NCBI GenBank assembly: GCA_038087875.1
Contig: CM075988.1
Span: forward strand, 4,216,001-4,280,000
Direction of reading: 5' to 3'
DNA length: 64,000 bases
Origin: Malacoraja senta
Taxonomy: Eukaryota
Below, in pieces: positions 2,555-64,000 of the stretch (the stretch's first letter is position 1; each line of letters starts with the position of its first letter). The notes under the pieces are model-generated. The model saw only the letters and a program-made list of their open reading frames with translations. It did not search any database and was not told where the DNA came from. Both the position numbers and the translations under genes were made by a program.

Positions 2555-2606
<52 letters not shown>

Positions 2607-2830: not shown

Positions 2831-2869
2831 GGTAGCATAAAGTCAGAATGTTTTACATCCGTATCAGAG

Positions 2870-23220: not shown

Positions 23221-23296
23221 ATCATTTTTCATTATGCCTGATTAATTCCTATAGCACAGAAATCACATTTTTACTACATTGGAGTTGTATCCTGAA

Positions 23297-26200: not shown

Positions 26201-28025
26201 GGCATGTATTAATTGTATGGGTGGAATTTCCATGATAACAAAGAATGGATGTTTAACCTTAAGATTTTTTAATGATATAATAGTCAGATTTGGGAAGCCA
26301 GATATGACTTGTTTCCATCCAGACTCAATCACCAGGTACAGAGATATGTGTTATGGGACTACATCGGGAGACAGTAGCGATGGATGTTTCTCGCTATATT
26401 AGGATGGTAAGTTGTTATAAGCATTTTACTTCATCCTGTCTCATAAATCGGTGTCTGCTTAAAATGAAGCAGTATGCTGCCTCTGGGGTATTCGTGGTAC
26501 CAGACGGATCTATGCAGCCATGGTTCCCTTTGATATTGGAATTTATGACACAGTTTCTGATAAATGTTCCCAAAAGAAGGAAGTTACTGGTGTATTCGAT
26601 AATTGGAGAGTAACATCCGTCATATGCCTGTATGGATGCAGGTATTAAAAAAGAGGATTGTCTGGGCATGCTGGGGACATGCTTACAGCAGTCTGGCGGA
26701 AGAGTACTCAAAAGCAGTACATTTGTGAATCTGAGTTGTGACTCTGTAAATACTGCTTTCCCATTATGTAAAGAATGAGGGGAACAAAATTTCTGTGTAT
26801 AAAAGAATATGGAATGTTGTATGGCACATGTCTCAAATATCTTGGATTGACCTCTATTTAATGGGTTGAGGTATAGTGCGATTTATTCACACAGAAGTAT
26901 ATTATTCCTCGTTTTTATTTGATGAGGTTGGAAAGACATCCTGTTAAGTCTCATTCTTTTATTTCCAGATTAATGAAAGGAATTTTAATTCCAGACCTTC
27001 TAAACCTAGGAGGGAATCTGGAATATAGAATTGTTTTAAGCTACTTCATCAAAGGAGTCTTGGTACGATTCTGATTTGGCCAAGTTCAGCATGAAGGTAG
27101 TCATGTTTATGGCACTTGTAACATTACAAAGTTACAGATACACAGAAGTACCTCAGGATTATGTTATGTTTTACATTTTATGACCTACTCAAATGAAGTA
27201 GGATCAGGTGTGATAGGATTCAAGATTGTTTTATTAACATATTCTATGGATCCATGTCTATATGTTAAGACATATTTATTGCAAAAAATTGAGGCTACAA
27301 AGATCTTATGAATTATGAAAACAAGATTGTTTATCATTCACGAAAAACCATACAAGATAGTGTCAGTTTAGACTATTTTAAGATGGTTAAAAACAAGTTT
27401 TAGTTGCTGCACGTGTGAACATTGATGGTTTTACATTCCATTTTACATTCCATTCAGTTTAGCAGCAACATTGACGACCAGGGCGAAGGAAGTCCCGTCG
27501 ATCATATTCTCACATATTCTGAAGGGGATACTATTAATTCTTTTATTCAAATAAATGAATTACTGCATTTGTAGTACAAATGTTATTATTAATGCATTAT
27601 TGAATATTCTCGTTCCGAGTCAATCAATGCAGTGAGAAGCCGGGATTTGTCTGCGGCATGAAATAACAAAGCTTTAAAATCTTCACGTAGTCACTCACGT
27701 GACTCCGAAGTAAAATAGTAAGATTAAACGAGAACTTACCTAAGTTTGAAGTTTGATCTTTATTTTATGAGGAGTTACGTTGGTGATTACGTGCCCACCA
27801 CGACCCAACCCTCTATCATAAAGGTCAGATGGAAGTTCTTGTATTACTCGTTTTATTATGATACTATATTACTTCGCTTGTTGTTTTTTGTGATTTCACA
27901 CCGCTGCTTCGAAGATTGACGCGCAGGCGCACTGGTGGGGTTCTTCACGTAGTCACCAACGTAACTCCTCATAAAATAAAGATCAAACTTCAAACTTAGG
28001 TAAGTTCTCATTTAATCTTACTATT
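23297..28025 (+). mobile_element. DIRS1-type retrotransposon copy 1, full length, coding regions heavily decayed
   Basis: Left end ttttacttcggag..., ICR 27680-27793 complementary to both ends, right ITR plus extension about 27915-28025; gag (AHFKMNCFRK..I.P), RT (MA*LDDVL), RNaseH (INNTTAMACINCMGG), MT (QPWFP) and YR remnants in order. Confidence 0.93.
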
Positions 28026-30402: not shown

Positions 30403-32181
30403 GTACACAAGAAAAACAAACAATAATAGTCTATGTAGTTCAGAGCTTATTTGGAGGTTGTAGTGTTTAATAGCCTGATGGCTATTTTGTATGTAAAGTG
30501 AGGAATCATTAAATATTCAAGAGTCAAGAGTCAAGAGTGTTTTATTGTCCTATGTCCCAGATAGAACATCTGAAGACAAATTGCTCAGAGCTTGTTTTTC
30601 TAACTCTTCATTGTAATGAAGTTATTAAGAGGATCCATCTCAATCATCAGATCAAACTTACTGTTGCTTTCCTGCCCATGAGGAGTGTCTCTGAACTGAA
30701 GCAATATGCGTAGTGTTGAGGGCACGGGTATGTCCAGTCATTCAGGATGACTCTTCTATCAGCACCAGGCTAAGCCGTATACCACATCACTAGCATCAGC
30801 TTTAATGGTCTATAATGCATACTCTATTTAAGGATGCAGAGGAGGGTCACGGCCACTCACATTTAGCTATCTACATTTATATAACACTTCGTAAATAGCA
30901 GGATTGCTCTGAGGCTCACAGAAGCTTTGTCAAACTGAATATTTAGCCAATTTAAAAAGCCAGAGATCCAAGCTCTCAGTCAGCTGGGTAGATTGTAAAG
31001 AGCACTGTAATGAGTGGGAGAGAGGCATGAAGGGCTATCTATGCCTGGGTTTCAGTGGTGTTTCAGCCACCAAAGGCATAGCCATCAATGTGTACGAAGG
31101 AACCGCAGATGCTGGTTTAGACCGAAGATAGACACAAAATGCTGGAGTAACTCCGCGGGACAGGCAGCATCTCTGGAGAATGAATATGTGACTTTTCATC
31201 TCGGAGAAAACCCACGCAGGTCACGGGGAGAATATACAAATTCTGCACAGACAGCACCCGTAGTCAGGATCGAACCCGGGTCTCCGGCGCTGTATTCGCT
31301 GTAAGGCAGCAACTCTACCGCTACGCCACCATGCCATCGGACCAGACCTGACATGACCAGAGTTTTGCAAGGGACGTGGGGGTCAGACTCCCTGGGAATA
31401 ACATGGTCATGAATGAAGGTTTCAGCAGCAGATGACTTAGGTGGCCTCAGAGAAGTTATGGATCAGTGGTCCAAATCACAACATGGGATAAATATGGTTA
31501 ATAGTAAGATTAAACGAGAACTTACCAGTTTGAAGTTTGATCTTTATTTTATGAGGAGTTACGATGAGTGATTATGTGAAGAAGAACCCCGCCAGTCCGC
31601 ATGCGTGTCAATCTTCAAAGTAGTGGTGTGAAATCACAGATAACAGTAATTGAAGTAACATAGCAAGATTAGAAACCTAGAACTACTAGATGACCTTTGT
31701 GATATGAGGGTTGAGAGCAGAGGGCACGTAATCGCTCATCGTAACTCCTCATAAAATAAAGATCAAACTTCAAACTGGTAAGTTCTCGTTTAATCTTACT
31801 ATTTTACTTCGGAGTCACGTGAGTGATTCCATGAAGATTTCAAAGCTCTGTGATTTCATGCCGTAGATACAAATCCAGGCATCTCACTGCAGCAATTGAC
31901 TCAATATGAGTGAATAATAAACAATTCATTGAACCATGGCATTAATTTGAATCTGTTAATGGTTTACTTAACAAAGAAAAACAATAGCGACCCCTCTCTC
32001 CCAGGGGGAAGCTATGAAACAGAACTTAAAATAGAATGGGCAGACTTCCAGTGGCGCTATGTTATACTAACAGACGTGCACCTAGCTCCGCTCTCGAAAC
32101 ATTTCGCGATTTTTCACGGTAAAACGTGTCTATAAGTTGGAAATGATTTTAAAAACCTTACCGGAGCTTCTGGTCGCCGGG

Positions 32182-32197
32182 CTGATGACGTCATCAG
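32182..32197. promoter_or_regulatory. 16-bp perfect palindrome containing a full CRE in the L1 5' UTR
   Basis: ctgaTGACGTCAtcag. Confidence 0.5.
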
Positions 32198-32296
32198 TAA
32201 GCGCGATGTTTTACATGGTGGCTTAAAGACTTTTAAATGAGAAAACTGTCTCTAGCCAAGAGCCCTCAGAGAACAGTTAAATAGCTGCTGAAAAAT

Positions 32297-33320
32297 GTGA
32301 AGAATCCTGAAGGAGAAGTTACCTCTGAAGTTTCTGAAATGGTTGCAGAAATGGATACAAGATCTAAGACAGAGCTGGCTAAGGACAAAGAATTTGAGGA
32401 TTGGAAGAAATCAGTGAAAGATATGAAAGCTGAAATTTTGGATGAAAATAAAACTCTGATGGGAAAAATGATGGAAAAAATCGAAAAGATGATGTAGGAT
32501 TCGAATGCTGGTAATCAGAAGGTGGCTGATTCACTGGACACTATAAATAAACAAATTGATGATGTGAAAGATGGACTATCGGGGAGAATTGATAAGATGG
32601 AAAAAGTTACTACGGACAGGTTCACGGCTGTGCTTGAAACAGTGGCTGCTAGTATGGCTACAATTACGGAATTGGAGAAAAATATGGCTAGAGTGGTTGA
32701 AGACATGGTGAAAATGAGGCGAGAACATGATCAAATGAAGCAAGAATATGAGCAAACCTCAGTACAGATGATGACTCAACTGGGGAATGTTTCAGATAAA
32801 TGCCTGGACCTGGAAGCTCGCTCTAGACGCCAGAATTTGAGAATTCTTGGAGTCTCAGAGGGAACTGAGGGAAGGGACATCCGTGAGTTTGCCATGCGCT
32901 GACTTAAACAACTGCTTAATCTCTCCAAAGAACCAAAAATTGAAGTGGCTCATCGTGTTCCAAGATTTAAACCGAGATCTCAAGCTGGAAAAGACCACCC
33001 ACGACATATTATTGTGAAATTTCGTGACATTTCAGAACTGGAAGAGCTGATGAGCAAAATCAAATACGGAGTGCAGCTGAGGACTGAAAATGACATTATC
33101 AAAATATTCAGGGACTATCCGTATGAAATCGTGTAAAAGCGAAATCAATTCGGAAAGGCAAAATAACTTTTAAGAGGGAAACAAGATGTCAGATACGGTG
33201 TTTTTTATCCAGCTAAAATACGCATCTCTCATAATTGGACGTGAAAGATCATTTGTAAAACTGGAGGATGCGTACAAATATGCCCAAAGCATCGTTGAAA
33301 AGTAGAGAACGAATGATATG
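32297..33320 (+). pseudogene. L1 ORF1 (coiled coil + RRM + CTD) with in-frame stops and a frameshift
   Basis: Coiled-coil-like stretch followed by DLEARSRRQNLRILGVSEG, AHRVP, PRHIIVKF, IFRDYP. Confidence 0.9.
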
Positions 33321-34203
33321 AATAAACCCTCTTTTTTTAATTAGAATTCCACAGTTAATGGAGGTTCGGCAGCTCAGAACCATTTCAAGCAGTGTTTTGT
33401 TTAGGATGGCGAGACTGTTATCTGTGGAATTTTAACTCAAGGACATTCTGTGTTCCAAACTAAGTAAACAGCCGAACTGAAGAAAATGGACTATACCAGA
33501 AGCATTAATTGTTTAACAGATTATAATATTAAATCCAATTGTAAGAATTTATCCTATTAACAACTTAACAATTTAACAAGTAATTAATATTAAACTAGAT
33601 TAGTAACGGATGCTAATAAAAATTAAAAAAATAACGAACTAACATAACTAATATAAATTTTTACTAAATCTAAACCTTATCTATAAATGGGAGGAGGGGA
33701 TGAGAAACGAGCACCTGGCTCGGGTCCAGGAGCGCGCTTCATTAACCCCTTCAACCAACAGTTGATTATTATTGAAGCTAAAATCATTTGTTTAATAATT
33801 AGTAGCTAAAATTGCGATATATATATGATATGTTATAATGAAATATATAGGGTAAATTTGTATTATATATCTGAATGTGAGGCCCCGTCCTAATATGTTA
33901 TGTTTAACCAAGGGAGCGGAGTTATTTGTTTAACATCAACAATGGAAGTCGAAACAAGGTTTTCTCCCACCTACAGGTGGGCCACTTGTTACAGTGTCGA
34001 CCATTTTAGACACTGTATTTTCACTTTTTCAATTTAAAAAAAAATAATATTATCACATAAAGTCACATGTTTGTGTTTCGTGTTTAGGGATAAGCGTAAA
34101 AGGGATATGCCAACAAAACTTAGTAATGCAAAGGTTCCCCCAATACCCAAAGACCTGGGACATGGATGCACCGCAAGATTTAAAGGTATTATAATTATTC
34201 AAA

Positions 34204-37200
34204 ATGCAAGATGTTAAACAAAAGAACCTAGGAGGAGTCTCATTCTGCAGTTGGAATATAAGAGGTATTAACGAAGCTATTAAAAGGGGTAAGATACTAG
34301 CTCAGCTGAAACTGTACAATTCTGACATCATCTTCTTACAAGAAACTCATCTAAAATCTCAAGATCAAGCTAGGTTGAGGGCGAAATGGATAGGTCAAAT
34401 ATATCATTCTTCATATACTTCGAAATCTAGAGGTACGTCAATTATTATTAGAAAAGGTATACCATTCAAAGCAAAGAATATCATAACAGACATTGAAGGG
34501 AGATATTTGATAGTTACCGGAGAAATTCATGATACTCCAATTACCTTGGTAAATATATACGCGCCTAACTTTGACAACCCTCATTTTTTCAATAAAATTT
34601 TGAACATAATCGCAGAGTTTAATTATCAAAATGTTATAATAGGAGGAGACTTTAACTGTGTTTTAGATCCGTATTTAGACAAATCAAGCCAAAAACAGAG
34701 AGGGAATACGAAATCTAAAACTAGTGAACTTTTAAATACTTGTATAAACAATACCAATATAGCAGATGTTTGGAGAATTGCTAATCCGACTGGCAGGGAA
34801 TACTCGTTTTATTCAATGGTACACAAAACATACTCACGTATAGATTATTTCCTGGTGGATACAAAATTAATCCCTCACACTGTGAACCCAGCATACCATA
34901 CAAACTCGATTTCAGACCATTCACCACTAACTTTCTTTTTAAAACTGGAAGGAATGTCTAATAATAAATCGTTTTGGAGATTCAATTCTCAAATCCTAAA
35001 AGATCCGCAAGCGAGTATATATTTAAAAGAACAAATGGACGTCTTTTTTGAAATAAATGACACTCCAGATATATCGCCTACTGTATTATGGGAATCTTTT
35101 AAAGCATTTATTAGAGGTGTTATAATCTCATATCAAGCTTTTCAAAATAAAAAGAATAAGAATGAACAAAGACAGTTAGAAGAACTTATTAGACAAATGG
35201 ATATAGATAATGCTAAAGATCCATCAATAGATAAACATAATAAAATAATAATTTTGAAATTTAAATTAAATAAACTATTATCAGCCAAACTTATAAGACT
35301 TTTCCAAATTACAAAACAGGAACACTTTGAATTTGGGGATAAACCGCATAAACTGTTGGCTCGTCAGCTAAAAAAACGAGAAAAAGAACATACGATCCAA
35401 AAGATTAAATCAGATAGAGGGGAATTACTAACCATACCGAAGGATATTAATAAAAGATTTGCGCAATTTTACGAGAATTTGTACACATCTAAAACGACAA
35501 CTGACTCCAATAAAATTACAGAGTTCTTGGATAATTGTAATCTTCCAAAGTTAGTGTTGAAGGAACAAGAGGAATTGGGTGCACAAATTTCAATTAAGGA
35601 ATTAGAAGATACAATAAACTCATTAAAGAATGGAAAAACTCCAGGTCCTGATGGATTTACTAATGAATTTTATAAAAGCTTTTATGACAAAATTATACCA
35701 TGGTTACAAAAAATGTATCAATATGCTTTAAAAAAACAAATATTACCTGATACATTAGCTGAATCAACGATTACACTAATACTTAAAAAAGACAAAGATA
35801 TAGAAGAACCGGGTTCATATAGAGCTATAGCATTGTTAAATACAGATCAAAAAATATTAGCGAAAACATTAGCTAGAAGATTAAGTAAATATATTAGTAA
35901 ATTAATAAACCCAGATCAGACGGGGTTTATCCCTAAGAGATATTCATCTAATAATATGAGACGTCTACTCAATATAATGCACTCACACAAAATTGAAGAT
36001 CCAAGAATTATTAATTATTTCGCTGGACGCTGAAAAAGCATTTGACCAAGTAGAATGGAATTATATGGATAAAGAAAGTATTACAAAAATTCCAACTGGG
36101 AGTGAATTTTATTTTATGGATTAAATTATTATATAATAAACCTACAGCTAGAATATTAACTAATAACATATTATCCTTGAAATTTCAATCAAGGGGAAAT
36201 AGACAAGGATGCTCATTATCACCACAGTTGTTTGCTCTCATAATTGAACAGAATTGCTCTCACAATTGGACAGATGTGTACAGCAATTCATTCTTCCCCC
36301 GCACAATTAAAGCATGGAATAATCTCCACCCTACCATAGTTACCCAACCAGATGCAACTAAATTTAAGGTAGCTCTTTCTTCCCAAAAACCCTTTCTGGC
36401 TTAAGTCCTCCCTCCACCACCTCCAGTTTAAATTCCATTTGGAATATTTTGGAGGACCAAAAAACCAAGAACCAAGAAGAACCTTTAGCAGAAAAAATGA
36501 GAACACATCCAGATATCCATGGGTATAATACTAAATACTCAAATAATAAAATATCCTTATACGCGGATGATATATTATTGTACATTACTAAACCTCAAAT
36601 TACTATACCAAACATATTAAATCTAATTGAGGACTTTGGATCTTTTTCCGGATACAGAATAATTGGAATAAAAGTGAAATGATGTCAATAAAACTGAAAG
36701 ACTCAACACATCTTTTAAAATTCCCTTTTAAAATAGCTACAGAAAAATGTAAATACTTGAGTATTGAAATCACCAGAACATACCAAGGCATGTTCAAAGC
36801 AAATTTTGATCCTTTACTTAATAAATTAAATACACTAATTACATTTTGGAAAACGCTTCCGATGTCTTTAATAGGCCGAATAAATGCAATAAAAATGATT
36901 TGCCTACCACAAATTTTATACCTATTTCAATCGATTCCTATATACCTACCAAAGAAGTTAAAAAAAAAACTGGACTCAGATATTATTAATTTTATATGGG
37001 ACTATAAATCACATAGAATACAAAGAACACACTTGAACAAAGCTAAAGTATTAGGGGGCTTAGCACTCCCTAACTTCATAACCATATAACCATATAACCA
37101 TAACAGCACGGAAACAGGCCATCTCGACCCTTTAAGTCCATGCCAAATTCATGTATTAGTATTGGTCAGTAAATATTAAAAATATGATCCAACTGATGGA

Positions 37201-38341
37201 CAACTCTGCTCAGCAAGTGGACTGGATTGTAATGGAGAGAGAGGACTGCTCCTCTGGAAACATTGGAGCGATCCTCCTCTCACCAATGAAACTGAATAAC
37301 ATAAATTATAATAAAAACCCAATTATACATAGTACAATCAGAACTTGGAAACAAATAAAACAAAATTTAAAATTAAGAAATCTATCGCTTTTATCTCCAA
37401 TAGTTAATAACCCTTTGTTTAATCCCTCTATTACAGACAAATCTTTTATACAATGGGATAGACTAGGAATTAAAATGTTCGGTGATTTGTATGAAACTGG
37501 AAAATTACTATCATTCCAACAACTACAAATAAAATATAAACTGGGAAATAATCAATATTTTAAATATTTTCAAATATGTGACTATCTGAAAAAATATACA
37601 AAAGATCATTATAATATCCCAGCAGATGTATTGGATGAAGCAATGCAGATAAAAGCTGAATCAGCAAACTTAATATCATATTTGTATAATATTATCTTAA
37701 ATGTAGAAATACCATCTACGGAAGGTATTAGAAGAGACTGGGAACAAGAATTAGCTATTAAAATCTCAAAGGAAAGCTGGAATGAACATTTATTAAACGT
37801 GCATAAATGTTCGATTAATGTAAGACACACTTTAATACAATTTAAAATTTTACATAGATTATATTATTAAAAAACTAAAATTAATAACATTTTCCCAAAT
37901 GTATCATCCATTTGTGATAAATGTCAATCTCAAGAAGCTACTATAGCACACTCATTTGTTTTTTGTACAAAAATCCAAACATTTTGGATTGAAATTTTTG
38001 TAATCTTTACAAAATTATTTAAAATAAGACTGATACCAAAAGCATAATGGATTATCTTCAGAACAACGGAAGATAGTCCTGAACTAAATGTGTTTCAAAA
38101 GAAATTAATAGACTATGGATTAATAACTGGAAAAAAGTTAATCCTAAAATTCTGGAAAAATGCTCCAATACCAGCTATAAACATGTGGATTTCAAATATG
38201 TTCGAAACATTACACCTAGAAGAGATAAGACTCCTCCTGGCAGGTAAACCAGATCACTTCCACCTGACATGGTCTGTATTTATAGAATTATTACAAGTAT
38301 ATGGTGCAAAAGTACTTAAAAAAAAAAATGAGGTCAGGTAA
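34204..38341 (+). pseudogene. L1 ORF2 (APE endonuclease + RT + Cys-rich domain), frameshifted after about 36010 and carrying two small inserts
   Basis: SWNIRGI, FLQETH, GGDFN, YSRIDYF, SDHSP, KTPGPDGF, DQTGFI, RQGCSLSP, YADDILL, CDKC..HSF.FC. Confidence 0.95.
36251..36478 (+). mobile_element. Short LINE 3' end inserted in L1 ORF2
   Basis: NSFFPRTIKAWNNL motif and (aaccaag)n tail; L1 LIIE|PLA is split with gaac duplicated. Confidence 0.75.
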
Positions 38342-41300
38342 AGGGGGATGAAAGCTGGAGAGTTGGTATATCCCATTTGCGTGATGCGTATAACAAAGTA
38401 TTTGTTTTTCTCTTTTTCCTCTTTTTATTTTTTCTTGTTCTTTAGGGTCTATCTCTTAATCCTTTCTTTTTAATTTCTTTCTTACAGGGTCTTTGTTCTT
38501 TCTTGTTGTCACGTTTTTACACCTTCACTATTTTCTTTCACTTCTCTTTTTTCTTAATCTTAACCTTTCCTTTTTATTAGTGTAAAAAATGACGGAGTAC
38601 ATTAATTGTAATAATATATACGTGATGAGTATTAATGTAATTGGTTGTAATGTAATGTACTTCTAATAAATAAAAATTAAAATAAAAAAAAATAAAAAAG
38701 AACCAGACCCACCTACCTCCATGGTTACCGGTGGAATTTTCTGTCCCCTGTTTCTGGTGGGAAAGGACATGTTCACCCGTGCCCCTGTTGGAGTGCGCCA
38801 GCTGCGCATATTTGTGAATGGCCGGCTTGGTCCTTGACCTGATCTGGTTTCAGCCAACCGTTTGGAGGGATACTGCCGCCGAAGCGTTCTGCTGGTCATC
38901 GGTGCTTTGATGAGTCCGACCGTTCTTGCCTCGTCGTCCAGCTCCTTGACTCTTTTTGCGAGGTCTTCACCAAACAGCAGATTCGGTGGCTGGATATTGC
39001 TGGGTTTGCACAGAGCGGCGAACTTCGGGTTGATGGTAGGGCGGATGGCACTCTTTCTCAGACAATTTATCTCGAAGTGCACATGAGGGTCAGAGCATCC
39101 TGCTGTACATCAGACAGGTGCCCTCCATCCACCGACCTAGCGAATGCTGTAATGCCCGAGGCGAGCAGCTTCAGCACCCTCTGAAGCCTCATTTCCTGAG
39201 CTCTGATGATCCCAGATGGCATGGTTCACAGCCGGCACTTTGAGCACGACACAATTAGCCGGGGTCTCGTACTTTTAGGACATTTCATCCATAGTAAGTT
39301 CTTGCAGCTGGTGTGAAGCCAAGTAATTAATACTTGCGGCCAACTCTTCACCTAGCGGTTCTCCTGATTCTGTTGGGATGGCAAACCTTGCTGCCAGGAA
39401 CGGTACCTCTGACTCATGCCCTTCATCCCTTGTGGTATGCTCCACAGCTAAACCCACAGACTCGGCGCCAGAATAATACTGACCCCGCATGCTCTCCTCC
39501 TCCAAGAGGGAGACATTAAGCAGCCCTAATTCAGGTGCCGCTGGCGCGGGCTCTCGAAGAGGCCGGCGCTGACACAACTCCTCCTGTTGGAGTGTATCTT
39601 GGTGGAGAATCCTCTCCATTAGGAGCTCTATCCTGGACAACCGTCCAAATATGTTATCCATTACCGGAGGGGAACCCTCCCGGCCCCACTCGTCCGAGTC
39701 AACTGGCCGTGCAGACTTTTTAGAGTCTTTCCGCCCCAAAGGTGCAGCCACGGTGCTCTCTGGCACCAAGTCAGCAGTCGCTGCTCGTACCGCCAGCGAC
39801 TCGGTAGGTGAGCTAGGCGGCCGCCCGCTACCCGCACTCGCACGGGCTTCCATAGCTACTTTCCCGGCGGCTCACCTTGACTTCACCCTCGACGCTTTCT
39901 CCATACTCGAACTTGCTCCTGAAACAAGAATTACCAAGCGCAGAAAATGACCTCCGACTAAGTTTGACACTTACCTGAGGGTTTTTTAAACTTACCGCTG
40001 GAGGAGCACTGCTCCTCCCAGCCGGTCGCTGCGCCATGCGTCAGACGTAATGACACGCATGCAGACTGGCGGGGTCCTTCAGGGAATCACTCACGTGACT
40101 CCGAAGTAAAATTCTGATTTGGGTTAGGTTTCATGCAAGTGCCAGGAATACGAGCAGGAACAACAAGATAGGGGACAGAGTTTGTATTAAAGCATGATGT
40201 TGAAGCACACTCCAATGCATTGCACAGAGATAGATAGATTCTTGATTAGTATGGGTGTCAGGGGTTATGGGCAGACGGCAGGAGTATGGGGCTAGGATGG
40301 AGAGATAGATCAGCCATGATTGAATGGCGGAGTAGACTTAATGGGCCGAATGACCTAATTCTACTCCTATCACTTGTAATCTTATGATCTAATAATGATA
40401 ATAGATCTACCTTGTGCTCCTACCTGGGTTAATAATAATGGTTATTTAATAATGGTTTAACCATCATGGAGTCATAGAAACAGGCCCTTCAGACCAATAT
40501 GCTCCATCTACACATCCCACCTGCCTGCATTTGGCCCATATCCCTCTAAACCTATCCGATCCATTAACCTGCCTAAATGTTTCTTAAATGTTGCGATTGT
40601 ACCTGCCTCAACTACCTCCTCTGGCAGCTCGTTCCATACACCCACCACCCTTTGGTTAAAAGTTACCCCTCAGATTCCTATTAAATCTAACCTCCACCTC
40701 ACCTTAAACTTAAGTCCACTTGTTCTTGATTCCCCTACTCTGGGTAAAAGACTCTGTGCATGTACCCGATCTATTGCTCTCATGATTTTGTACACCTCTA
40801 TAAGATCACCCCTCTGAATAGAGTTCCTGTCTGCTCAACCTCTCCCAATTGCTCAAGGCCTCTAGTCCTGGCGACTTTGTGCAGAACCATTTTCCAGTGC
40901 GCACACCTAAGATGTTTCAATCCTCATTGTGAGCCCAATGACCTACCCACACCCACACAACATGGCCTCGAATGATATGGTGCCTCTGGTGGTGTTGAGG
41001 ATGGGGTCTGCGTGGAAAGAGCTCCACCCACACAACAGCTAAAACAATTGACAGCATAAGCATGTTGGAAGGAACTGCAGATAGACACAAAAAGCTGGAG
41101 TAACTCAGCAGGACAGGCAGCATCTCTGGGTCAAAATGAAATGGGTGATGTTTCTGAGCGAGACCCTTCTTCAGACTGAGAGCATCAGCTAGCTCTCAGA
41201 CACTTCAATCAAAAAACATACTCCATCTCCATTCAAAAGTCAATTAACAAAAAGTTAAAATACTTAAGAACACTTTAAAAAATAAAAACCTTTATGTATA

Positions 41301-50767: not shown

Positions 50768-51390
50768 AGTCAAGAAGAGTCAAGAGCTAAGAGTGTTTTA
50801 TTGTCATATGTCGCAAAACAGAACAATGAAATTCTTACTTGCAGCAGCACAACAGAATATGTAAACTTAGTACAATGTAAACACCATAGTAAACAAAATA
50901 AATTATGTAGAATAGTGCAATGACAAAACCAATGCCCTCAAGTCAATGTAGTTGAGAGCTTACTTGGCGATTGTAGTGTTGGTTGTTGGGAAGAATCTGC
51001 TCCTGAATCATGGTAATTTGAATTTCACTTTACCTTAATTGGTACATGTGACTATAAACTGACCTTGAAACCTTGACCTTGACATTACAGTTTTCAGGCT
51101 CCTGTACCTTTTTCCCGAAGGCAGGAGTGAAATGAGAGCGAGGCCAGGGTGGTGTGGGTCTCTGTTGACGCTGGTTGCCTTTTTAAGGCAGAGACTCCCG
51201 TAAATCTGTTTGATGTTGGCGAGGTCAGAACCCATGATGGGCTGGGCAGCGTTAACCACTTTTTGCAATCTTTTTCGTTCTTGGGAGGTTAAAATTGCCG
51301 ACCGTGATGCAACCAGTCAGTGTGCTACCCTACAGCTGTGGAAGTTCAAGAGAGTATTCATCGACATGCCGAATCTCCTCAATCTTCTAA
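50768..51390 (-). mobile_element. Rex-Babar-type LINE 3' end with a second short tail nested inside
   Basis: QKVVNAAQPIMGSDL..DPHHPGLALISLLPSGKRYRSLKT. Confidence 0.8.
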
Positions 51391-52207
51391 GGAAGGGCAG
51401 CATGGTGGCACGGTGGTAGAGAGGTAGGGTTGCTGTCTTACAGCGCTTGCAGCGCCAGAGACCTGTGTTCGATTCCGACGACAGATGCTGCCTGTACAGA
51501 GGTTGTACATTCTTCCCATGACCACGTGGGTTTTCTCTGAGATCTTCGGTTACCTCCTACACTCACGTACAGGTTTGTAGGTTAATTGGCTCGGCATAAG
51601 TGTACATTGTCCCTACTGTGCGTAGGATAGTGTTAATGTGCGGTGGTCGGTGCGGATCCGGTGGGTTGAGGAGCCTGTTTTCCGCACTGTATCTCTCAAA
51701 CTAAAAAGCTAAAGTCGAGTTGTTGATGTGCTTCCTTTATGATTGAATATTAATTTTACTTCGGAGTCACGTGAGTGACTACGTGAAGAAGACCCGTCAG
51801 GGCGCATGCGCGTCATTACGTCTGACGCATTGGCGCCCGGCAGCAGGAAGACGGAGCTCCTCCTGCAGGTGAGTAGTTTAGAGCTCAACCAAAGTCGGGG
51901 ATTCTTTGGAGGAGTTAGGAAAAAGTAGAGACATTGTTTCTGTGTGTTTTTTCCCCACATACAGGAACAAGGAAAAGGTGCAGGCTGCTGCCGACAAGGA
52001 GAGAGAGAGTTGCGGGAGCGCAGTCTCTGAAAGGCAGCCTGTCACCTCTGGGGAGTCGCAAGCCGGTAGCGGTGCGGCGACAGACTTGGCAAAGTGCCCA
52101 GCCGGGTACACAGCCAACGCCAGTCGGGCGGTAGGCAAAAGGCAAGTCATCAGGGCCATTGACTCGGCAGAGTCGGGCCAGGAGAGTCCCGTCGGGGACA
52201 GGATACC

Positions 52208-53032
52208 GTGCCCCAGCGGTTATCCAAAAGGAGCAGCTCATACAGGGGCTGCTTCACAAAGCCACACTCCAGGAGGAGTTGTGTGGGCGGGAGGCCGTGG
52301 CGAAGGCTCCGCCGGCAGTGCCTAGTAGAGGCCTGCTTGAAAGCACACTCTTTGCAAGAGGTGAGTGCAGAAGGGCAGATACACTCTGACCCTGAGTCCG
52401 ACGACGACTTCCAAAGGGAGGGCATGCAGCTGCCAGAGCTGACACCGTGTGCAGCACGGTTTGCCATGTCGTCGGACGCTGGTGAGCCTCTGGGTGAGGA
52501 ACTTGCCACCAGCATAAATTACCAAGTCTCACATCAGCTACAGGAGCTGACAATGGAAGAGACAGTAAGGAAGCATGAAGCCCCAATCAACTGTGGCCTG
52601 TTAAAAGTTCCTGTTGGGAACAGGAAGAATTGGGGCAAGATGGGCATACTAATGAGAGCCCAGGAGGATGTGAAGCTCCAGCATATTTTTAAAGTTGCTG
52701 GCATCTGGTATAACGAGCTTTGCCAGGATGATGGATGGAGAGGCCATGACAAATTACAACAAAAGGCGCTATTGTGGAGTGCCCACTTTGAGATCAACTG
52801 CCTCCGCAAGACTGCGATTAGACCAACCATCAATCCTAAATATGCTTCACTCTGCCAGCCTGGCACAGTGCAAACGGCACAGCTGTTTGGCGAGGATTTC
52901 GCACAGCAGGTGAAGGAGCTGGAGGAGGAGGCTAAGACGGCAGCCACATATTCACCAAAGCGGAAGTATCCCTATAAGGGAGCAGACTGGTCCGGGCAAG
53001 GGACGAGTCCAGCTACGAGGCAGCGCAGTTGA
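52208..53032 (+). pseudogene. DIRS gag-like ORF1, longest surviving frame (copy 3)
   Basis: Shares ARFA..GEPLGEELA.SINY..SHQLQELTM and HFEINCLRK.AIRPTINPK with copies 1 and 2; start codon mutated and frameshift upstream. Confidence 0.8.
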
Positions 53033-55552
53033 CGTTCGGCTGTAGCAGCGCCAGGGAAGGTGAGATATCCAGCTCGAGGCCGGGGAAGAATGCCAGGTGG
53101 TAAGGAGGTAAGTGGGTCTGGTTCTCATGTAGACAGATCTAATGTGATACCTCAGATATGTTTATACTGAAGGTTATAGAAGGATATAGAACAAAGCTTA
53201 ATGCAAATTCTGATTTACCCATGCAACATGTTCCAAAAAGGAGTTTGACTTCAGTATCATTGAACAATTGAAAGTTCAGTTGGGACTTGCAAACTTATGT
53301 AATAAAGGTGTAATTGCTAAGGCAGTTTACCAAAGCCATCAGTTTATGTCCAATATCTTTCCCAGACCAAGCAAGGATGGGGGATGCAGAATTGTACTGG
53401 ACCTGAATAGTCTTAACCCTTTTGTATGGTATAGACATTTAAAGATGGAAATGTTTGTGAAGGAGATCTTAAAGAAACGGATTCAGTGTCTGTTCATTTG
53501 GAGGATAGAAGATTTATAATTCAGCTGGATGGGGCAATTATTGCAATACAATGCACTGCCTAATAGTTTGTCTTCAGCTCCTAGAGGGATTACAAAGTTG
53601 TTAAAACCTATTCTAGGCATGATGAGAAGTCGAGGGCATGTACTCGTGGCTTAACTAGATAATATCTTGATTGTAGGACAATCAAAGGAAACAGCTGAAG
53701 CATCAGTGGCAGTTGGTAAAAACCATTTTTAAATTGGGCTTCATAACCTATCCAGATAAATCTAAATTTATACCTGTGACACAAATTGACTAGTTGGGTT
53801 CACAATAGACTTAATCAACATGATTGTGACCTTGCCCAGGCAAAAAAGGTATAGCTAATTAGGAGCTGTATCAAGTTAATTGCTGACACACAGCCTTCAA
53901 TTAGCCAGGTGACAAGTCTGCTGTGGTAATTGCTGGCAGCATTTCCAGCAGTTCAATATGGCCACTTTATTATCTACAATTACAAAGGTCAAAGGAACAA
54001 GCACTGAGGATACATTAGGGTCATTATAACAGACCTATGCTTCTATCAATAGAGGCTGTTGCTGATGTACAATGGGGGATTCAGCATGTGTCCACTAGTA
54101 GTTCCAAAGTGTTATTGGACCAAGCTTCCATGATTTTGCAGACCGATGTCAGAGCACTTGGGTAGGGTGCTACTGATACAAGATCCAGCTGTGGAGACAG
54201 ATGGACATTGCTTCTGCAAACATGGGGAATTAACCAAGAGTATTTTATGGATTCAAGGCTTATGGCACTAACAAAACTAGTTTGCATGTGCAATGCAAAA
54301 TACACAACACTACAGCAGTTGCTTATATGAATCACATGGGTGGAATCAAATCGTTATCACGTGACAGGTTGGCAAATAGAATTGGACCTGGAGTATGGAT
54401 AGAGATATTTGGATTGGAGCTATCTATCTGCCAGGGAAACTTAATGTAGTACCAGATGGCAGGTCACGAAAATTACGTGATAATACAGAGTGGATGTTGA
54501 ACCATGATGTGTTCAAGAACATAGTACTTCTATATTGAAGGCCAAAATATGTTTCATGGGAACCAGATCCAGGGGCAGTGGCAATTGATGCTTTTTCACT
54601 AAATTGGGATGATATGTTTGTGTACATTTTCCCACCATTCTGCCTCATGGTGTTTGAGAAAATCAAGCAGGATGCCGCTTCAGGGGTTTTGGTGATACCA
54701 AATTGCCCGATTCAACCATGGTTCCTTTTCAGGTTACAGATAGTGATCCAACCTCCTTTTGATGATTCCAAACGGTAGGAATTTGCTGGAGCATCCAGTA
54801 ACGCGTTAAGTTCATCTGTTATGTGATCGTATTGATCTGTTAATTTGCAGGTTTGTAAGAATGCCTTACATTGGTCGAGGACTTTCTAGGCCAACGGTGG
54901 ATATACTCACTGCAGCCTGGAGAAAGAGTACTCAAAAGCAGTATATCACTTATGAAAAAAAAAAATTAAAAAATGGGAACAATATTGTGTTCAAAAGAAT
55001 ATTCAATATGATACTGTAGTTATTGAAAATGTGTTAGAGTTTATCAACACTTTATTATGATGAGGGTCTTAGCTATAGTGTTATCAACACAGCTAGAGGT
55101 GCTTTGTCGGCATATCTTGTAATAGGTACATGGACACAAAGTATAGGTTCTCACCCTCTCATATCTAGGTTCATGGAAGGAATCTTTAATTCCAAACCGC
55201 CTAAGCCTAGGTATATGGTAATCTGGGATGTAAGCATTGTTCTTAACATGCTTTGTCATTCGGTCCCTGTCACGTCTGTTAAAATTAACCATGAAATTGG
55301 CTATGCTAATGGCATTGGTGTCAGCACAGAGAGTGCAGACTTTCCAAACACTTCAGTTAGATAGAATGTAAGTGACTACAGAAAATGTTATGTTTTATAT
55401 TTATGACCTGCTCAAACAAAGCAGGCCAGGTGTGACAGGATTTAAAATTGTGTTCTGAACATATCCCACAGCTCCATGTTTATGTGTAAGGACACATTTC
55501 TTACATTACATTGAAGCCACAAGGGCTTTAAGACAAGAAGAAACAGGATCAT

Positions 55553-55837
55553 TTGTCAGTTACAAGAAGCCAACATAAAAGAGTGGCAGTTCAGACTATC
55601 TCAAGGTGGTTAAAGCAAGAGTTGGTTCAGCCAGGTATTAACATTTATGTGTTTACATCTCATTCCACTAGCGCAGTAGCAACATCCGCGGCCAGGGCGA
55701 TGGATGTTCCCATCGACCATATATTAAAAGCCGCAGGTTGGAAAAATGAACTTGTGTTTCAGCAATACTACCATTGGCCGATTGCCGATGGAGGGCTGTT
55801 TGCCACCTCAATATTGAGTGCTGTTGCTAATGTTTAA
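55553..55837 (+). pseudogene. DIRS tyrosine recombinase C-terminal fragment (copy 3)
   Basis: TISRWLK, FTSHSTS (HSTR arginine lost), ILKAAGW, FQQYY. Confidence 0.85.
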
Positions 55838-57515
55838 TGTCTGTTTTCAATACTGTTTAATTCTGTTTCGTTTGTTGCCCTAAATTAAGAGGGTTTATTG
55901 GTTGTTTTATGACCAAAAATAGAACTGTTTTGTTTTTGCACGATATGCAATGTCATGTTTACAGCATTATTGATGATACTCAGTCAATCAATGCAGTGAG
56001 AAGCCGGGATTTTGATCTGCGGCATAAAAATCACAGAGCTTTAAAATCTTCACGTAGTCACTCACGTGACTCCGAAGTAAAATAGTAAGATTAAACGAGA
56101 ACTTACCAGTTTGAAGTTTGATCTTTATTTTATGAGGAGTTACGTTGGTGATTACGTGCCCGCCACGCCCAACCCTCTCTCATAGAAAAAAGGTCATAAT
56201 GGTAGTTCTCACGTTGATCATCTTAATATGTTACTTCAATTATGGTGTTATCTGTGATTTCATACCGCTGCTTTGAAGATTGACGCGCATGCGCCCTGAC
56301 GGGTCTTCTTCACGTAATCACCAACGTAACTCCTCATAAAATAAAGATCAAACTTCAAACTGGTAAGTTCTCGTTTAATCTTACTATTCATATCAGGTAG
56401 AGCAGATCAAGGCAGACAACAAATACTGCCCTTCCCAAGGCGGGTCTGATTCCACGAACAAACTTAAAAGTAAAATGATCAAACAGAAAATTACACAGAT
56501 TGTTTCCATCTGATGATGCTGTTTGAGTAAAGGAAACAGACTGAACCTCAAATGGTGCCACAGTCCAGGAGGTTTTATAAGCTTGCTATGAAACGGTGCA
56601 GCAGGATTGCAACTTTCTATACAGCCTAGATTTCCACAGGGCGGCACAGCAGCGCAGCGGTAGAGTTGCTGCCTTACAGCGCCAGAAACCCAGGTTTGTT
56701 CCCGACTACAGGTGCTGTCTGTACGTAGTTTGTACGTTCTCCCCGTGGCCGCGTGGGTTTTCTCCGAGATCTTCGGTTTCCTCCCACAATCCAAAGACGT
56801 ATAGGTTTGTAGGTTAATTGGCTCGGTGTAAATTGTCCCTAGTGTGTGTAGAATAGTTAATGTGCGAGGATCGCTGGTCGGTGTGGACTCGGTGGGCCGA
56901 AGGACCTGTTTCCGTGCTGTATCTCTGAAACTAAAAACTAAGCTGAAGCTGACAACAGGCCAACATCTGTATTTCATGAACATAGATTCATGGAGCATAG
57001 CATCTTCTGCCTACTGTTAATGCCAACCATTGATCGCCTGTTCACACTAGATCTATGTTATCCCACGTTCTCACTCACTACCTTACACACTAGGGGGGAT
57101 TTACTGAAGCCCAGTAGCACAGCTTGCACATCTTTAGGATGTGGGAGGAAACCGGAGCACCCGGACAAAACCCACATGGTCACAGGGAATATGTGCAAAC
57201 TCCACATTGACAACGCCCAAGGTCAGGACTGAACCTAGGACTCTAATGGCAGCGCCGTTGTATCGCCCCAAAAATAATCAAAGTAAAAGATGCAGGCAAT
57301 ATACAACAAAGAAGGATCTTGACCCGAAACGTCGCCCGATCCTTCTCTCCAGAGATGCTGCCTCACCCGTTGAGTTACTCCAGCATTTTGTATCTACCTA
57401 GGAGTTCATCAACCTTTTTATGAAGAGGGACAATGTTGTTGATTTCTCTTCATGTGTCAGTTACAGTAATCTCAGTATGTTAGGCTGAGTTGTGAGAAGA
57501 AATGGCCGCTAAACC

Positions 57516-60500
57516 ACTTTGGAGTCACGTGAGTGACTACGTGAAGAAGGCCGTCAGCCCGCATGCGCGTCATTACGTCTAGCGCATTGCGCAACGCGCT
57601 GACTGGCAGGCGCGCTGCTCCTACCAGCGGTAAGATTAAACCTGCAGGTAAGTTGTAAACTTCCCAGGTTATGTTTTTTATTACAGGAATCTCTTCTCAC
57701 AGAGTTTTCCTGCTGGATTTCGGGGCAATGTCGGGACGGGCCGCGGGGAAACCTTTATGGACCGCGGGGTAATCCCAGTCATGGACCGTGGGGAATCCCG
57801 GTCATGACCGCGGTGAATCCCGGCCACGGACCGCGGGGAACCAGCTACGGAGACCGCGGAAGTGCGGGCAGCGGGCGGCGGTCAAAATTCGCCTTCCGAG
57901 TCGCTGCCGGTGGAGCCAGCTGCCGGTAGCACCTTGGCAAACCCGCTTGGAGGGTAAAGCCACTAAATGATATCTCCCTCTCTGAGGAGGGGAGAGTAGG
58001 GAAGAGGCCCGTTGACTCAAACGAGTCGGGCCAGGAGGATTCCTGATGGAGAGGATCCCCTCCTTCAATGGGTAGCGTCTTCGGACGGCTAACCCACATG
58101 GAGCACCTGATGGAGAGGTGCTCCACAATGGTATCCTCCAAGGAGGGAGTTATATCACCACGGGTGTCCTCGGGGCCCGCGGCAGCGGCAGCCGCACCCG
58201 TTTACAGGGCTGCACTGTGTCTCCCTCTCTGAGGAGGGGAGCAGTCAGGGTCAGTTCTGTGTGACTCGGAGTTCGGTACCACGAGGCACGAAGGGTATGG
58301 TCGGTGGAGGGGCCATATCAGCGCAGGTCTCCTCGGGGGCCTGCGGCAGCACCTGTTTCAGGGCTGCTTACTATCGCCCTCGCTATGGAGAGGAGTGCGA
58401 GGGGTCAGTGTGTAACTAACTCCAAACTGGGAAATATGTCCGTGGAACATACTGGAGTACGTGTGTGAGGTACAGAAATATCTGTCATGACATCCAGGTT
58501 TGCAACACCCTCGCAAGAGAAGGAGAGCTGCAGGAAGAGTGGTTCCAACCATTGGCAGCAACACCTCACGTCACGTCATAACAGGAACAGGTGACGGCTG
58601 TGATATACCATGCACCTGTAAATTGTTCCTGAAAATGCTGGCAGTGAACAGCGCTATCAGGGGTGAATTTGGAGGGGCATGGAACCCCAGGAAACCAGCC
58701 GCCGAATCTTCTCTTCATGTAAGCCTATTCAACAGGTGGACCTGCATGAGGGAGCTAAAGCTGTTGAACTACGAGACAGTCATCGTTTCGGCAACAACAC
58801 ACCTCACGCCTCCATCGGCAGTAAGCAGTTCACTGAAGCTGGTGGCAGCCAGCAAGCTGGGCAGAGGTCTTTAGGCCTCAGGAAAAAAATGCAATCCACG
58901 TACCCTACCAGTCCTACTCTCCAATCAAGGACGGAAATAGAACCCGCATCAGGGGCCTTTGGGGTTTCCAAAATACCTTACATGAAGGTAGGTGGGTCTG
59001 GTTCTTTCCGAAACATGGGGTATGTGGACCATTTACAAGTTGGTAATATTTACGCTTATTTTTGTACAAATGACAAGTGAACATGTGATTAGTTTATACT
59101 GCACAGTATACAAGGATTCCAAGCAGGCTTGGAATTGTGGCCAGAGTTGTCTTTTGAAGCAGCCTCAGGATTATGGCCAGGTTTGCCTTTTGAGACAGGC
59201 TCGGAAATATGACCAGAGTGTTTTTCTAGGCAGGCTCGTAACTATGGCAGGCATGGCCTGATCATTGTGTAAGATGCAGGATATCCGTTCATCATTGATT
59301 GACTCACATGTGCGGTATAAACATTTCAGCATAGCAAACTTTGTTACTGTCTAACAACTGATTTCCATAGGATCTTTCTGGCATGCATTGATCTCAAAGA
59401 TATCACCGGAGATATTTGAAATTTAGCAGGATGGGGCAATGATAACAGTTAAAACATTGCAAAATATGCTAACCAGTTCCCAGGCTATTTACCAAATTAC
59501 TAAAACCGGTGCTTGGGCTGCTTAGAGCTCAAAAAACACTTGTTATGGCCTTTCTACATGATATTCTAAATGCTGTATTTTGCTAAAATTAAACTGTTTC
59601 GACCGCACACTATATTTGAGAAATAGGGGTTTCTCATCCATCCAGTTAAGTTTGATACCAACTAGAGTTATTGATTATTGGGATTATCTTTAACTCTATT
59701 AATTTACTGTGACTCCGCCCTGCGGCAAGAGATTGGAATTAATAATAGCCTGTAACAACCTTGTTGTTATGAAGCAGCCTCTATTCATCAAGTGTAATTG
59801 GCAATATAGTGGCTGTGTTTCCAGCTGTGCATTTGGACCTTTGCATTATCAGAACTTACAACGTGCAAAGGAGTAACTTCTTCAGTGCCATATAGGTCAT
59901 TATTAACAGACCTATGCTATTACCAGCTGAAGCTATCAAAGTCACAGTGGTGGACAAACAGTATTCAACATTGCTCAGTAACTCTTCAGTTATATTACAA
60001 ACTGATGCTAGTACTCAAAGATGAAAAATTACGAATACCATCTCTAGTTACGCAGGCGGATGGGCTTTGCATGAATTACCATTTTTCAGTTATATGGTAT
60101 CAACTACCTATAAGACACTAGGTGTATTCTATGGGTTAAAAGTTTATTGTGCGAATCTGCATAATCTGCATGCTCAACTCCGAGTTGATACACTATGGTG
60201 GTGGCATATGTTAATCACAAAGGTGCAGTCAAGCTAAATATCCTGTGATAATTTACCTAACCTCATTTGCCACTGGTATATCATCACGTAAAATCTTTGA
60301 CAACACAGAATGGATGTTGTATCACAAAGTATTTAATGACATTGTGGTTCGATGGAACACCGAATATCAAAATGTTTACATCCAGGCTCAATCACCATTG
60401 TAAAAATATGTGGCACAGTGGCAATAGATGTATTCTCGCTACACTGAGGAGGAATGTTCTTTATGTCTTTCCTCCATTTTGCCTCATCAGTCGGGTCTTG

Positions 60501-62176
60501 CACAAAATCCAGCAAGATCTCGCCTCAGGCATTTCGTACTGCCTGACTGGCCTATTCAGCCTTGGTTCCCGCTAAATGTTGGGAATAATATAGGACCGTA
60601 TATGGATATCCTAAACACTAAAATTTGGTGGTTCAACCCCATGACTCGGTAAACCATCCTCTGCATGATAAAATCAATGTATAGACTTGCAGACTCTGAG
60701 AGACTGTTCCAGCGGCTCGGGTTGCAGACTGATCTATGTACGTGCTCACTGCAGAGTGCAGGGATAGCACTGAAAAAGCAGCACATTTTTCCTCATCAGG
60801 AGATGGGAAGTGTTTTGTTTTAATGCCAATGTTACATATAATACGGCACGGATAACTAACGTCTCGGAGTTCATTTTCAGATGGGTCTTTGACAATTAAT
60901 TAAGTTACAGTACCATTACTGTGCCAACGTGCTTTCTCATCATTGTTGCTGCAGCAATCAGGACCCACTCTGTCGGGTCTCATCCTCTCATATCCAGATT
61001 TCTAAAGGATATCTTTAATGCAAATTCTCCCAGGCCCAGGTACTCGGAGATATGGGATGTTAGTAATTGTTCTAAAACTGCTTCGTCAGTAGGGCCCAGC
61101 TACATCTCTAATCCTGGTCAAACCCACTTTCAAAGTGGTTATGCTTATGGCGCCAGTCTCAGCGCTACGGGTCCAGCCACTACTTAAATTGTGACTGGAC
61201 AGGATGGTTACATCTGCTAATAATATAATATTTTATTTTTATGATATAGTTAAGCAGAGCAGACCAGGGGTGTCAGGTCCTAAACAATTTTTCATGGCTT
61301 ACCCCATGGACCTTTGGTTGTCTGTGGTCACACATTTACAACAATACGTCAAGGTCACCTAGAGCCTTAGAGACTCTGCACTAGCAATGTTTGTTAGTTA
61401 CTAAAAACCTCATGAATTTATCAATCCAGAACATCTCCAGGTGGTCAAACGGGTTTTGGCTTATGCAGCAGTAGATACTAATATTTTCTATCTCACTACA
61501 CTAGGGCTGCTACAATATTAGCAGCAAGGATTATGTACGTTCCTCTGGACCACATCCTAGCGGCTGCAGGATGGTCAAACAAACGAACTTTCCAACATTT
61601 TATAATAACCCATTGCCAGACCGTTTTTTTTTTGCCAAATTCCATTTATGTTTTGTTTCATAGTTTCCCCCAGGATGGTAGGGGTCACTATTATTTTCTT
61701 TTAATGATTAAAGCATCAGCATTTCTTAACAAACTATGTCATGGCTGAATGCATTAATCTTTTTCACTCATCCATGGTCAATTGATGCAGTGTGTGATGC
61801 CTGGACTCGTATCTGGCATGAAATCACAGAGCTTTAAAGTCTTCACGTAGTCACTCACGTGACTCCGAAGTAAAATAGTAAGATTAAACAAGAACTTACC
61901 AGTTTGAAGATTGATCTTTATTTTATGAGGAGTTACGATGAGCGATTACGTGCCCACCGCTCCCAACCCTCATATTATAAAGGTCATCTGGTAGTTCTAG
62001 TTCTCTCCAATCTTATTATGTTCAGGTCAACTACTGTTAACTGTGATTTCACACCGCTGCTTTGAAGATTGTCGCGCATGCGGGCTGAAGGCCTTCTTCA
62101 CGTAATCGCTCATCGTAACTTCTCATAAAATAAAGATCAAATTTCAAACTGGTAAGTTCTCGTTTAATCTTACTAT
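57516..62176 (+). mobile_element. DIRS1-type retrotransposon copy 4, full length, decayed
   Basis: Left ITR, ICR about 61840-61952, right ITR/extension about 62070-62176; RT (MAFLHDIL), RH (VAYVNHKG), MT (LYVFPPFCLISRVLHKI, PDWPIQPWFP), YR (HYTRAA, ILAAAGWS) remnants. Confidence 0.92.
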
Positions 62177-63317: not shown

Positions 63318-64000
63318 TTTTACTTCGGAGTCACGTGAGTGACTATGTGAAGACCCCGCCAGCCCGCATGCGCATCATATCATCTAATGCATTGCGCAAC
63401 GTCCACTAGCTGCTCCACTAGCGGTCAAACCTGAAGGTAAGTTGTAACTTTTTCCAGGTCTGTTTTCTCCTTGCAGGAAGCTCTTTACAGAGTTCCAGCT
63501 GGAGACATTCCGGGGTCAAAATCCCGGCTTCACCCGGCTCCCTTCTACAGGGACCATGGGGGGGGGGGGGGGGGGATCCCAGCTGCGAAAACTGCGGGGA
63601 TCTGGCTCGGGGGAAGCCCGACCACAGACATCGCGGGGAAGCCCTTCTACAGGGACCGCAGAGGGAATCCCGGCTGCGAAAACCGCGGGGAAAATCCGAC
63701 ATGGACTTCGCGGCGAATCCCTTCTACAGGGACCACGGAGAACCCGCTACGGAGACCGCAGAATGCGGGTAGCGGGTGGCGGTCGAATTCGCCTTTTCGG
63801 GTCGCTGGTGGTGGAGCCAGCGGCTTCAGACTGGTGCCGGTAACACCCAGGCAACCCCGCTTGGAGGGTCAGCGACTTCGACTTGGGCAGCCCAAAGGTA
63901 GGCAACCAAACAAAGTGGGAGAGGCCCGGGCTGGACGAGCCTGGCCAGGACGGTTCCCCTCCGACATTCTAGGGTACGTCCTCAGACGTCTTACCCAGCC
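63318..64000 (+). mobile_element. DIRS1-type retrotransposon copy 5, 5' part (runs off the window)
   Basis: ttttacttcggagtcacgtgagtgactatgtgaaga start; 5' region similar to copy 4. Confidence 0.9.

Follow-up and report, generated by a model that had tools for sequence, protein, structure and literature searches.

A full-length DIRS1-like element with intact ends and broken genes, probably spread in trans

The window analysed here is the whole of a 64,000-nt stretch of contig CM075988.1 (GenBank assembly GCA_038087875.1, positions 4,216,001 to 4,280,000, forward strand), and positions below are those of the window. It contains at 51753..56388 a full-length retrotransposon of the DIRS1-like type, the third of five DIRS copies in the window and here called copy 3, whose termini match its internal complementary region (ICR) without a mismatch and whose enzyme genes are broken. 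Copy 3 is very probably a fairly young insertion of a non-autonomous, undeleted DIRS1-like family of thousands of members, replicated in trans through nested rounds.

Structure of the element

DIRS1-like elements, in the available passages of Piednoel et al. 2011 (PMC3266345), are 4-6 kb long and carry inverted terminal repeats (ITRs), ICR halves and NTT (mostly ATT) ends. Copy 3 is 4636 nt long, lies with all its features on the forward strand, and has ATT at both extremities. Its left terminus and ITR occupy 51753..51815, of which the first 37 nt are complementary to the left ICR and 51780-51815 form the conserved ITR core; the right ITR and right extension occupy 56281..56388, with the final 78 nt complementary to the right ICR. 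The ICR itself (56047..56158) consists of a left half (56047-56083) and a right half (56081-56158) that overlap on the AAT circular junction at 56081-56083. The left half pairs with the left end (51753-51789) at 37 of 37 positions and the right half with the right end (56311-56388) at 78 of 78, giving 0 mismatches in 115 nt. The ITR core is identical at 36 of 36 positions (51780-51815 against 56281-56316), and the inverted repeats in their longer extent (51763-51815 and 56281-56333) are 92% alike, with all four differences inside the part dictated by the ICR halves. The 3' region folds with z = -22 against 100 shuffles, the right ICR and right end forming a 78-bp stem whose arms are separated by 152 nt. 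The observed-to-expected CpG ratio is 1.2-1.7 in the ends and ICR (1.2 in the left ITR), against 0.12-0.13 in the reverse transcriptase (RT) and RNase H (RH) region and 0.51 for the window.

By all structural tests copy 3 is a member of the DIRS1-like superfamily. Its terminal repeats are inverted, its two ICR halves overlap on a 3-nt junction, and ATT stands at both ends without target-site duplication, as it also does in copies 1 and 2 amid unrelated flanks. The order gag, RT-RH-methyltransferase (MT), tyrosine recombinase (YR) is present as remnants, recognised by alignment to intact pol and YR relatives and by gag similarity; a Phage_integrase domain match in the YR remnant has E = 0.01, below the cut-off. 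Membership of the Ngaro, PAT or VIPER groups was considered and rejected, as these require split direct terminal repeats.

An intron-like 5' leader is predicted from the sequence at 51869..51964, with a donor (CAG/GTGAGT) after the ITR and a pyrimidine tract running up to ACAG. A strong splice donor (CAG/GTRAGT or AAG/GTAAGT) is kept just past the left ITR in all five DIRS copies of the window, and most of them also have a pyrimidine tract and AG ahead of gag. The predicted intron is retained in genomic copies of an RNA-replicating element, gene-dead lineages included.

Coding decay and the match between ICR and ends

The gag remnant (52163..53032) retains an open frame of 289 aa despite two internal frameshifts relative to distant references, and it has no upstream start codon: ATG is absent from the ~270 nt that follow the left ITR, a stretch in which copies 1 and 2 carry ATG-GAR-AAA. 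The pol remnant (RT-RNase H-MT, 53151..54854) carries, according to the reference chosen, 5-8 stops and 9-10 frameshifts. About 42-45 nt are missing at ~53460-53519, the RT first-aspartate motif, and 14 codons at ~54541, the MT motif, while YLDD is replaced by stop-LDN (stop codon at 53652-53654). The YR remnant (54857..55837) has two stops in its aligned part (55371 and 55458) and four frameshifts (54964, 55055, ~55280 and 55573), an outcome identical with three of three references, and HSTR has become HSTS. Pol and YR together hold about 8-9 stops and 13-14 frameshifts, and their longest stop-to-stop frames are 101-108 aa. An autonomous element would need its pol and YR frames open and their catalytic residues in place; copy 3 instead has stops, frameshifts, lost RT and MT motifs and HSTS. 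The lesions were placed by frameshift-aware alignment to intact relatives, the best full-length ones being 48-51% identical.

A preliminary description of this DNA had proposed a full-length DIRS with flawless cis-ends, intact CpGs in the ends and ICR, a shattered coding interior and a lost gag ATG, and the counts above bear it out on each of these points; its statement that all RT, RH, MT and YR frames are shorter than 100 aa has to be corrected, in view of the frame lengths just given.

Decay since loss of function amounts to ~0.074 per site when estimated from stops (lower bound 0.028) and to 0.086 from conserved pol residues. The conserved residues lost number 18 of 76 in pol and 4 of 61 in YR (Fisher p = 0.009, with different reference sets), a weak hint that RT may have been inactivated before YR in the lineage of copy 3.

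These values stand against the perfect agreement of the ends. The 95% upper bound on ICR-end divergence in copy 3 is 2.6%, and if all the decay had followed insertion, the probability of 0 mismatches in 115 nt at d = 0.08 would be 5e-9. Copies 1, 2 and 4 are likewise discordant, with well-matched ends and decayed interiors. Copy 1 (23296..28025, forward strand) is a full-length, more decayed DIRS of another lineage with 3 mismatches in 117 paired ICR-end nt, as the preliminary description had found in noting about three mismatches alongside worse coding damage. Copy 2 (31500..40112, reverse strand) comprises about 1.95 kb of DIRS, namely the ends and part of gag without pol and YR, and has 3 mismatches in 115. 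Copy 4 (57516..62176, forward strand), again a full-length decayed DIRS of another lineage, has lost the first few nt of its left end and has 5 mismatches in 110. The decay estimate for copies 1 and 4 is 0.11-0.22. The discordance between intact ends and decayed interior is therefore real.

Such discordance could also arise if an old, intact insertion had decayed in place while gene conversion within the inverted repeats kept the ICR and ends matched, and a 78-bp stem with arms 152 nt apart, like that of the right ICR and right end, is a good substrate for gene conversion. Conversion within copies would make the arms match inside each copy yet let them drift between copies, and this is contradicted by what is seen in the window: the ICR of copy 3 is 98, 95 and 96% identical to those of copies 1, 2 and 4, whereas the adjoining loop is 73, 76 and 76% identical, so that within-copy conversion cannot account for the conservation. 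The left end, 4.3 kb distant, matches the ICR as well, and most lesions are shared with other family members (see below), which already largely refutes this explanation. Decay in place is accordingly very improbable.

Variation within the copies follows the pairing. Copy 1 has two extra nt both in the ICR and in the partner end, copies 2 and 4 have a variant block in both places, and in copy 2 one variant is common to the ICR and the distant left end. Such co-variation is what ICR templating predicts in the passages available of PMC5633606.

The interiors of the other lineages in the window are ~60-75% alike to copy 3 and saturated at synonymous sites. Pairwise ratios of nonsynonymous to synonymous divergence (dN/dS) are 0.34-0.44 where computable and uninformative, with dS at 1.3-1.7 or saturated. 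The YLDD tyrosine is replaced by a stop in both copy 1 and copy 3, and one tryptophan in both copy 3 and copy 4. These coincidences are not taken as a sign that the window lineages descend from one dead ancestor: they may be due to chance because each copy has 7-8 stops and stop-prone codons are few, and the other lesions do not align.

Family size and sharing of lesions

Contigs from four of 24 public sequencing runs (X1, X3, X4 and X6) were aligned on 51200-56900 at 85% likeness, and the results below draw on 40 of 275 substitution rows, 12 of 33 indel rows, 15 of 587 joints and 32 of 118,626 pieces, the X1 counts being incomplete. In X1, contigs of the two flanks have depths of 27.8 and 31.5 with 0 differences from the window, so the flanks are single-copy and X1 may be the sample from which the window comes. 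The summed depth of the element interior is 2.1e5-4.9e5, equal to 7,000-16,000 single-copy units before correction for contig overlap, or about 1e4 times the flank depth; the figure is an order of magnitude only, as summed depth is not copy number and is inflated by overlapping short contigs, and it is read as "thousands". To that order of magnitude, the family comprises thousands of similar copies. The 3' end reaches 1.9-2.1e6, and its bins are ~5 times deeper than the copy 3 interior, so many other families or elements share these ends. A deep interior between single-copy flanks, with intact cis ends, is the pattern of dispersed copies expected of a trans-mobilised family.

Amplification of a dead copy as DNA, in a segmental duplication or satellite and without retrotransposition, would explain shared lesions with no need of a helper. 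Segmental amplification is excluded by what surrounds the copies: neither flank of copy 3 exceeds single-copy depth in X1, the contig at depth 31.5 passes out of the element's final 25 nt into unique sequence, and the window copies end exactly at ATT amid unrelated flanks. This explanation is the least credible of those considered.

In X3, X4 and X6 the interior has a depth of ~7-9 and the unique flank is almost uncovered (0.5 and 0.2 in X3); 149-530 contigs aligned from 700-900 million letters, with an implied single-copy depth of <0.01. The ratio of short interspersed element (SINE) depth to interior depth is 25-78 in these runs and 25 in X1. Such ratios suggest genomic DNA so dilute in the three runs that nothing but high-copy repeats assembles, in which case their contigs of 0.2-1 kb would be mosaics of many copies. 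The contigs diverge from copy 3 by 3.7% (X3), 3.9% (X4) and 4.7% (X6). In X6 the ICR bin (55975-56165) has a depth of 6,752, against 68 in the neighbouring bin and ~8 in the interior, perhaps owing to a short, very abundant contig. Two SINE copies of one family flank copy 3 in the same orientation (51400-51710 and 56640-56940, ~76-81% alike), and they account, as SINE-to-SINE artefacts, for joints near 51590-56827 that would otherwise look like empty sites lacking the element.

Sharing of lesions was assessed by comparing the gap letters in 18 pol and YR contigs with the gaps needed to undo lesions lying at least 31 nt inside a contig. Among 15 frameshift and deletion lesions, nine are present in every bridging contig listed (the RT deletion, ~53727, ~53790, ~53850, 54207-54240, ~54380, the MT deletion, 55055 and 55573), two are mixed and two not shared; one (53243) gave no call, and one (54964) is not bridged by the contigs listed. 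The lesions at ~54380, 55055 and 55573 are shared in three runs. Contig 13 of X3 (53869-54854) has 6 gap letters against the 76 needed to undo the lesions, contig 12 has 16 against 50-52, and of seven coding-region contigs with 0 gaps, six cross frameshifts. Inactivating lesions common to the family, as a trans-mobilised family should have, are thus found in nine of 15 cases. The preliminary description had recommended asking whether stops and frameshifts recur among copies, and for frameshifts and deletions the answer is largely affirmative; the case it had named as fatal, with every lesion private and the ends homogenised by local conversion, does not hold, as most testable lesions are shared and the ICR is conserved between copies.

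Sharing would mean little if the X3, X4 and X6 contigs derived from the copy 3 locus itself, its orthologue or its transcript, and the deep X1 signal came from a largely intact family. The kind of each run is not on record, X3, X4 and X6 are labelled as other organisms, and the X1 contigs listed are too short to bridge the lesions, all of which leaves room for such a source. A locus of this kind would not leave the X3 flanks nearly uncovered or yield so few contigs from so many letters, nor would it give a SINE-to-element ratio resembling that of X1. Three runs from two studies agree, and the extra letter near 53960 occurs in X1 in 0 of a depth of 324,786 (counts incomplete). An origin from the locus or its orthologue is quite unlikely. 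Because most testable lesions are common to the family contigs, the lesions would predate the insertion of copy 3, and it is highly likely both that they do and that the family spread in trans.

Repeated rounds, helper and known systems

Spread in trans might have happened once, as a single burst from one dead master, with all differences between copies arising after insertion and no granddaughter rounds. One dead parent suffices for shared lesions, and copy 3 is just 3.7-4.7% from the family contigs. Under a single burst, the probability of 0 mismatches in 115 nt would be 3e-4 if 3.5% divergence were all post-insertional. The share of X1 depth with the copy 3 letter also falls stepwise over the 35 element rows listed, from >90% through ~30%, ~5% and ~1.5% to <0.3% and zero. 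At 54726-54732 three linked letters are each found in ~1.5% of X1 depth while other letters stand at 5% or 30%, and internal deletions are shared at depths in the thousands, among them one from 52516 to 52838 at an X1 depth of 5,908. A single burst is unlikely on these grounds, and nested subfamilies apparently arose from parents that were already dead. Internal deletion derivatives at 52516-52853, 52923-52965 and 53173-53513 have X1 depths of 646-5,908; shortened forms have also multiplied.

Replication of the family in trans through nested rounds would then proceed as follows. The ancestor would have lost pol and YR function long ago, with ~7-9% neutral change since, while retaining its cis parts, namely the CpG-rich left ITR (likely the promoter), the ICR and the right extension. 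According to the DIRS1 model, a dead copy may be transcribed from the left ITR and its RNA reverse-transcribed by the Gag, RT and RNase H of other, intact DIRS. The ICR would template both termini, resetting ICR-end identity at each round, and the circle would be integrated at the ATT junction by the tyrosine recombinase of the helper. Daughters would in turn become parents, so that the interior drifts neutrally over the rounds while the ends stay under selection. In 4 of the 35 rows listed the letter of copy 3 is near-private, carried by no more than 3 single-copy units (a share of up to ~2% is compatible with the word counts), so copy 3 is not brand new; it would be a fairly young insertion.

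Several observations weigh against this account. The rows behind the ladder of allele shares are no random sample, and near gaps the shares are biased. The lesions were located using references just 45-58% identical, and full-length relatives of copy 3 are just 48-51% identical. Two lesions (~54649 and ~55280) are not common to the contigs, two more are mixed (~53960, where two X4 contigs have one more letter, and ~54756), and the stop at 53852, the only stop with a row listed, is private to copy 3; part of the damage is therefore private or subfamily-level. No listed X1 contig bridges the pol and YR lesions, the other stops, including that at YLDD, are unreadable for sharing, and an intact minority could exist beyond the contigs listed. 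The nature of X3, X4 and X6 was read from depth ratios and not from their records. Finally, no intact helper was found: protein searches returned distant relatives only, the closest unbroken RT being 58% identical and itself YLDY.

Other searches were similarly sparse. A first homologue search gave one match at 30% identity, a search for related loci gave three at 29-35% identity, and a scan of metagenome and viral contigs for the ICR motif gave 0 matches. No empty-site joint occurs among the 15 of 587 joints listed (one deep run). The preliminary description had proposed lesions older than the insertion in a lineage still moving with proteins from an intact partner. The first part is supported, now with a very large family behind it. 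Continued movement is only a possibility, copy 3 having near-private letters and those joints including no empty site, and so is the intact partner, for which the searches gave distant relatives only.

A broader possibility, put forward tentatively and with doubt, is that a radiation of DIRS1-like lineages lost their genes independently, persisted for a long time as full-length elements parasitic on one rare helper common to them and still inserts today, RT having been lost before YR in the lineage of copy 3. It is suggested by copies 1-4, which are saturated at synonymous sites while their ICRs are still 95-98% identical. If it were true, the ICR of ~110 nt and the ends would show, by a natural experiment, what the minimal DIRS replicon consists of.

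TOC1 of Chlamydomonas is a non-coding element with split direct repeats (PAT-type). Both TOC1 (PMC9940879) and SIRE of Trypanosoma cruzi, a short fragment of VIPER (PMC6681497), are non-autonomous members of the DIRS order, and as far as the available passages describe them neither has an undeleted ITR/ICR structure around decaying genes. The passages available on DIRS1-like elements (PMC3266345, PMC5633606) match copy 3 in gene order, conserved and divergent ITR parts, 3-nt ICR overlap, right extension, ATT and size; copy 3 differs in having no unbroken enzyme frame and in that most of the testable breaks are common to the family, not peculiar to one copy. Mouse VL30, in the accessible part of PMC4859993, is similarly full-length: its gag and pol are riddled with stops, its young copies have identical ends and it moves by trans-complementation. 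VL30 is a long terminal repeat/integrase element with 86 full-length copies and a proposed helper, MoMLV (Moloney murine leukaemia virus), whereas the family of copy 3 belongs to the tyrosine-recombinase elements, numbers thousands of copies and has yielded no helper. Xenopus DIRS-like families in Repbase, vertebrate and with ITR and ICR like copy 3, have degenerate open reading frames or repeats in 36 of 75 cases in X. tropicalis and 13 of 20 in X. laevis (PMC9210276); the passages available interpret these as degeneration and do not test spread in trans, and some of these families may be the same phenomenon unrecognised. Searches of the open literature, with Repbase, Dfam and subscription journals outside their scope, found no vertebrate family of the undeleted, gene-dead DIRS1 type; those on non-autonomous DIRS returned a mention of TOC1, and those combining DIRS with skate, shark or elasmobranch returned nothing relevant beyond a repeat figure for batoids. 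What appears to be new here is a VL30- or TOC1-like way of working in an undeleted DIRS1-type family.

A gene-dead family that spreads isolates the cis requirements of the DIRS machinery. According to the available text of PMC5633606, the DIRS replication model still lacks full proof, and the co-variation of ICR and ends, together with conservation of the ICR between lineages, offers natural evidence for ICR templating and for a weak cis-preference of DIRS proteins. DIRS insertions would seem older than they are if dated by coding decay or by their distance from an intact element, and domain-based screens that discard degenerate copies, as described in the accessible passages of PMC3266345, would miss families perhaps filling tens of megabases. 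The SINEs of this animal genome resemble those of skates or rays; should the host indeed be a batoid, the family may explain part of the 2.5-3.7% Gypsy/DIRS1 fraction given for batoid genomes in the portion available of 10.64898/2026.10.27.761883.

The window as a whole holds five DIRS copies of differing lineages within 41 kb (23296-64000), where the preliminary description had counted three; copy 5 (63318..64000, forward strand) is the left end of a further DIRS cut at the window edge. Copy 2 is split by a long interspersed element (LINE) of ~6.6 kb at 32030-38697, precisely where pol and YR are missing. This LINE has an endonuclease and an RT, an open frame of 612 aa at 34195-36033 and a poly-A tail near 38690. 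No clear target-site duplication was seen around it, so the gap in copy 2 reflects either a deletion at LINE insertion or a pre-deleted DIRS derivative of 2 kb. A second, decayed LINE-type RT region lies at 11709-14244, with RVT_1 matches at 11709-12765, and a 7-nt tandem array (TGTCCTT) occupies 50600-50770, ~1 kb upstream of copy 3.

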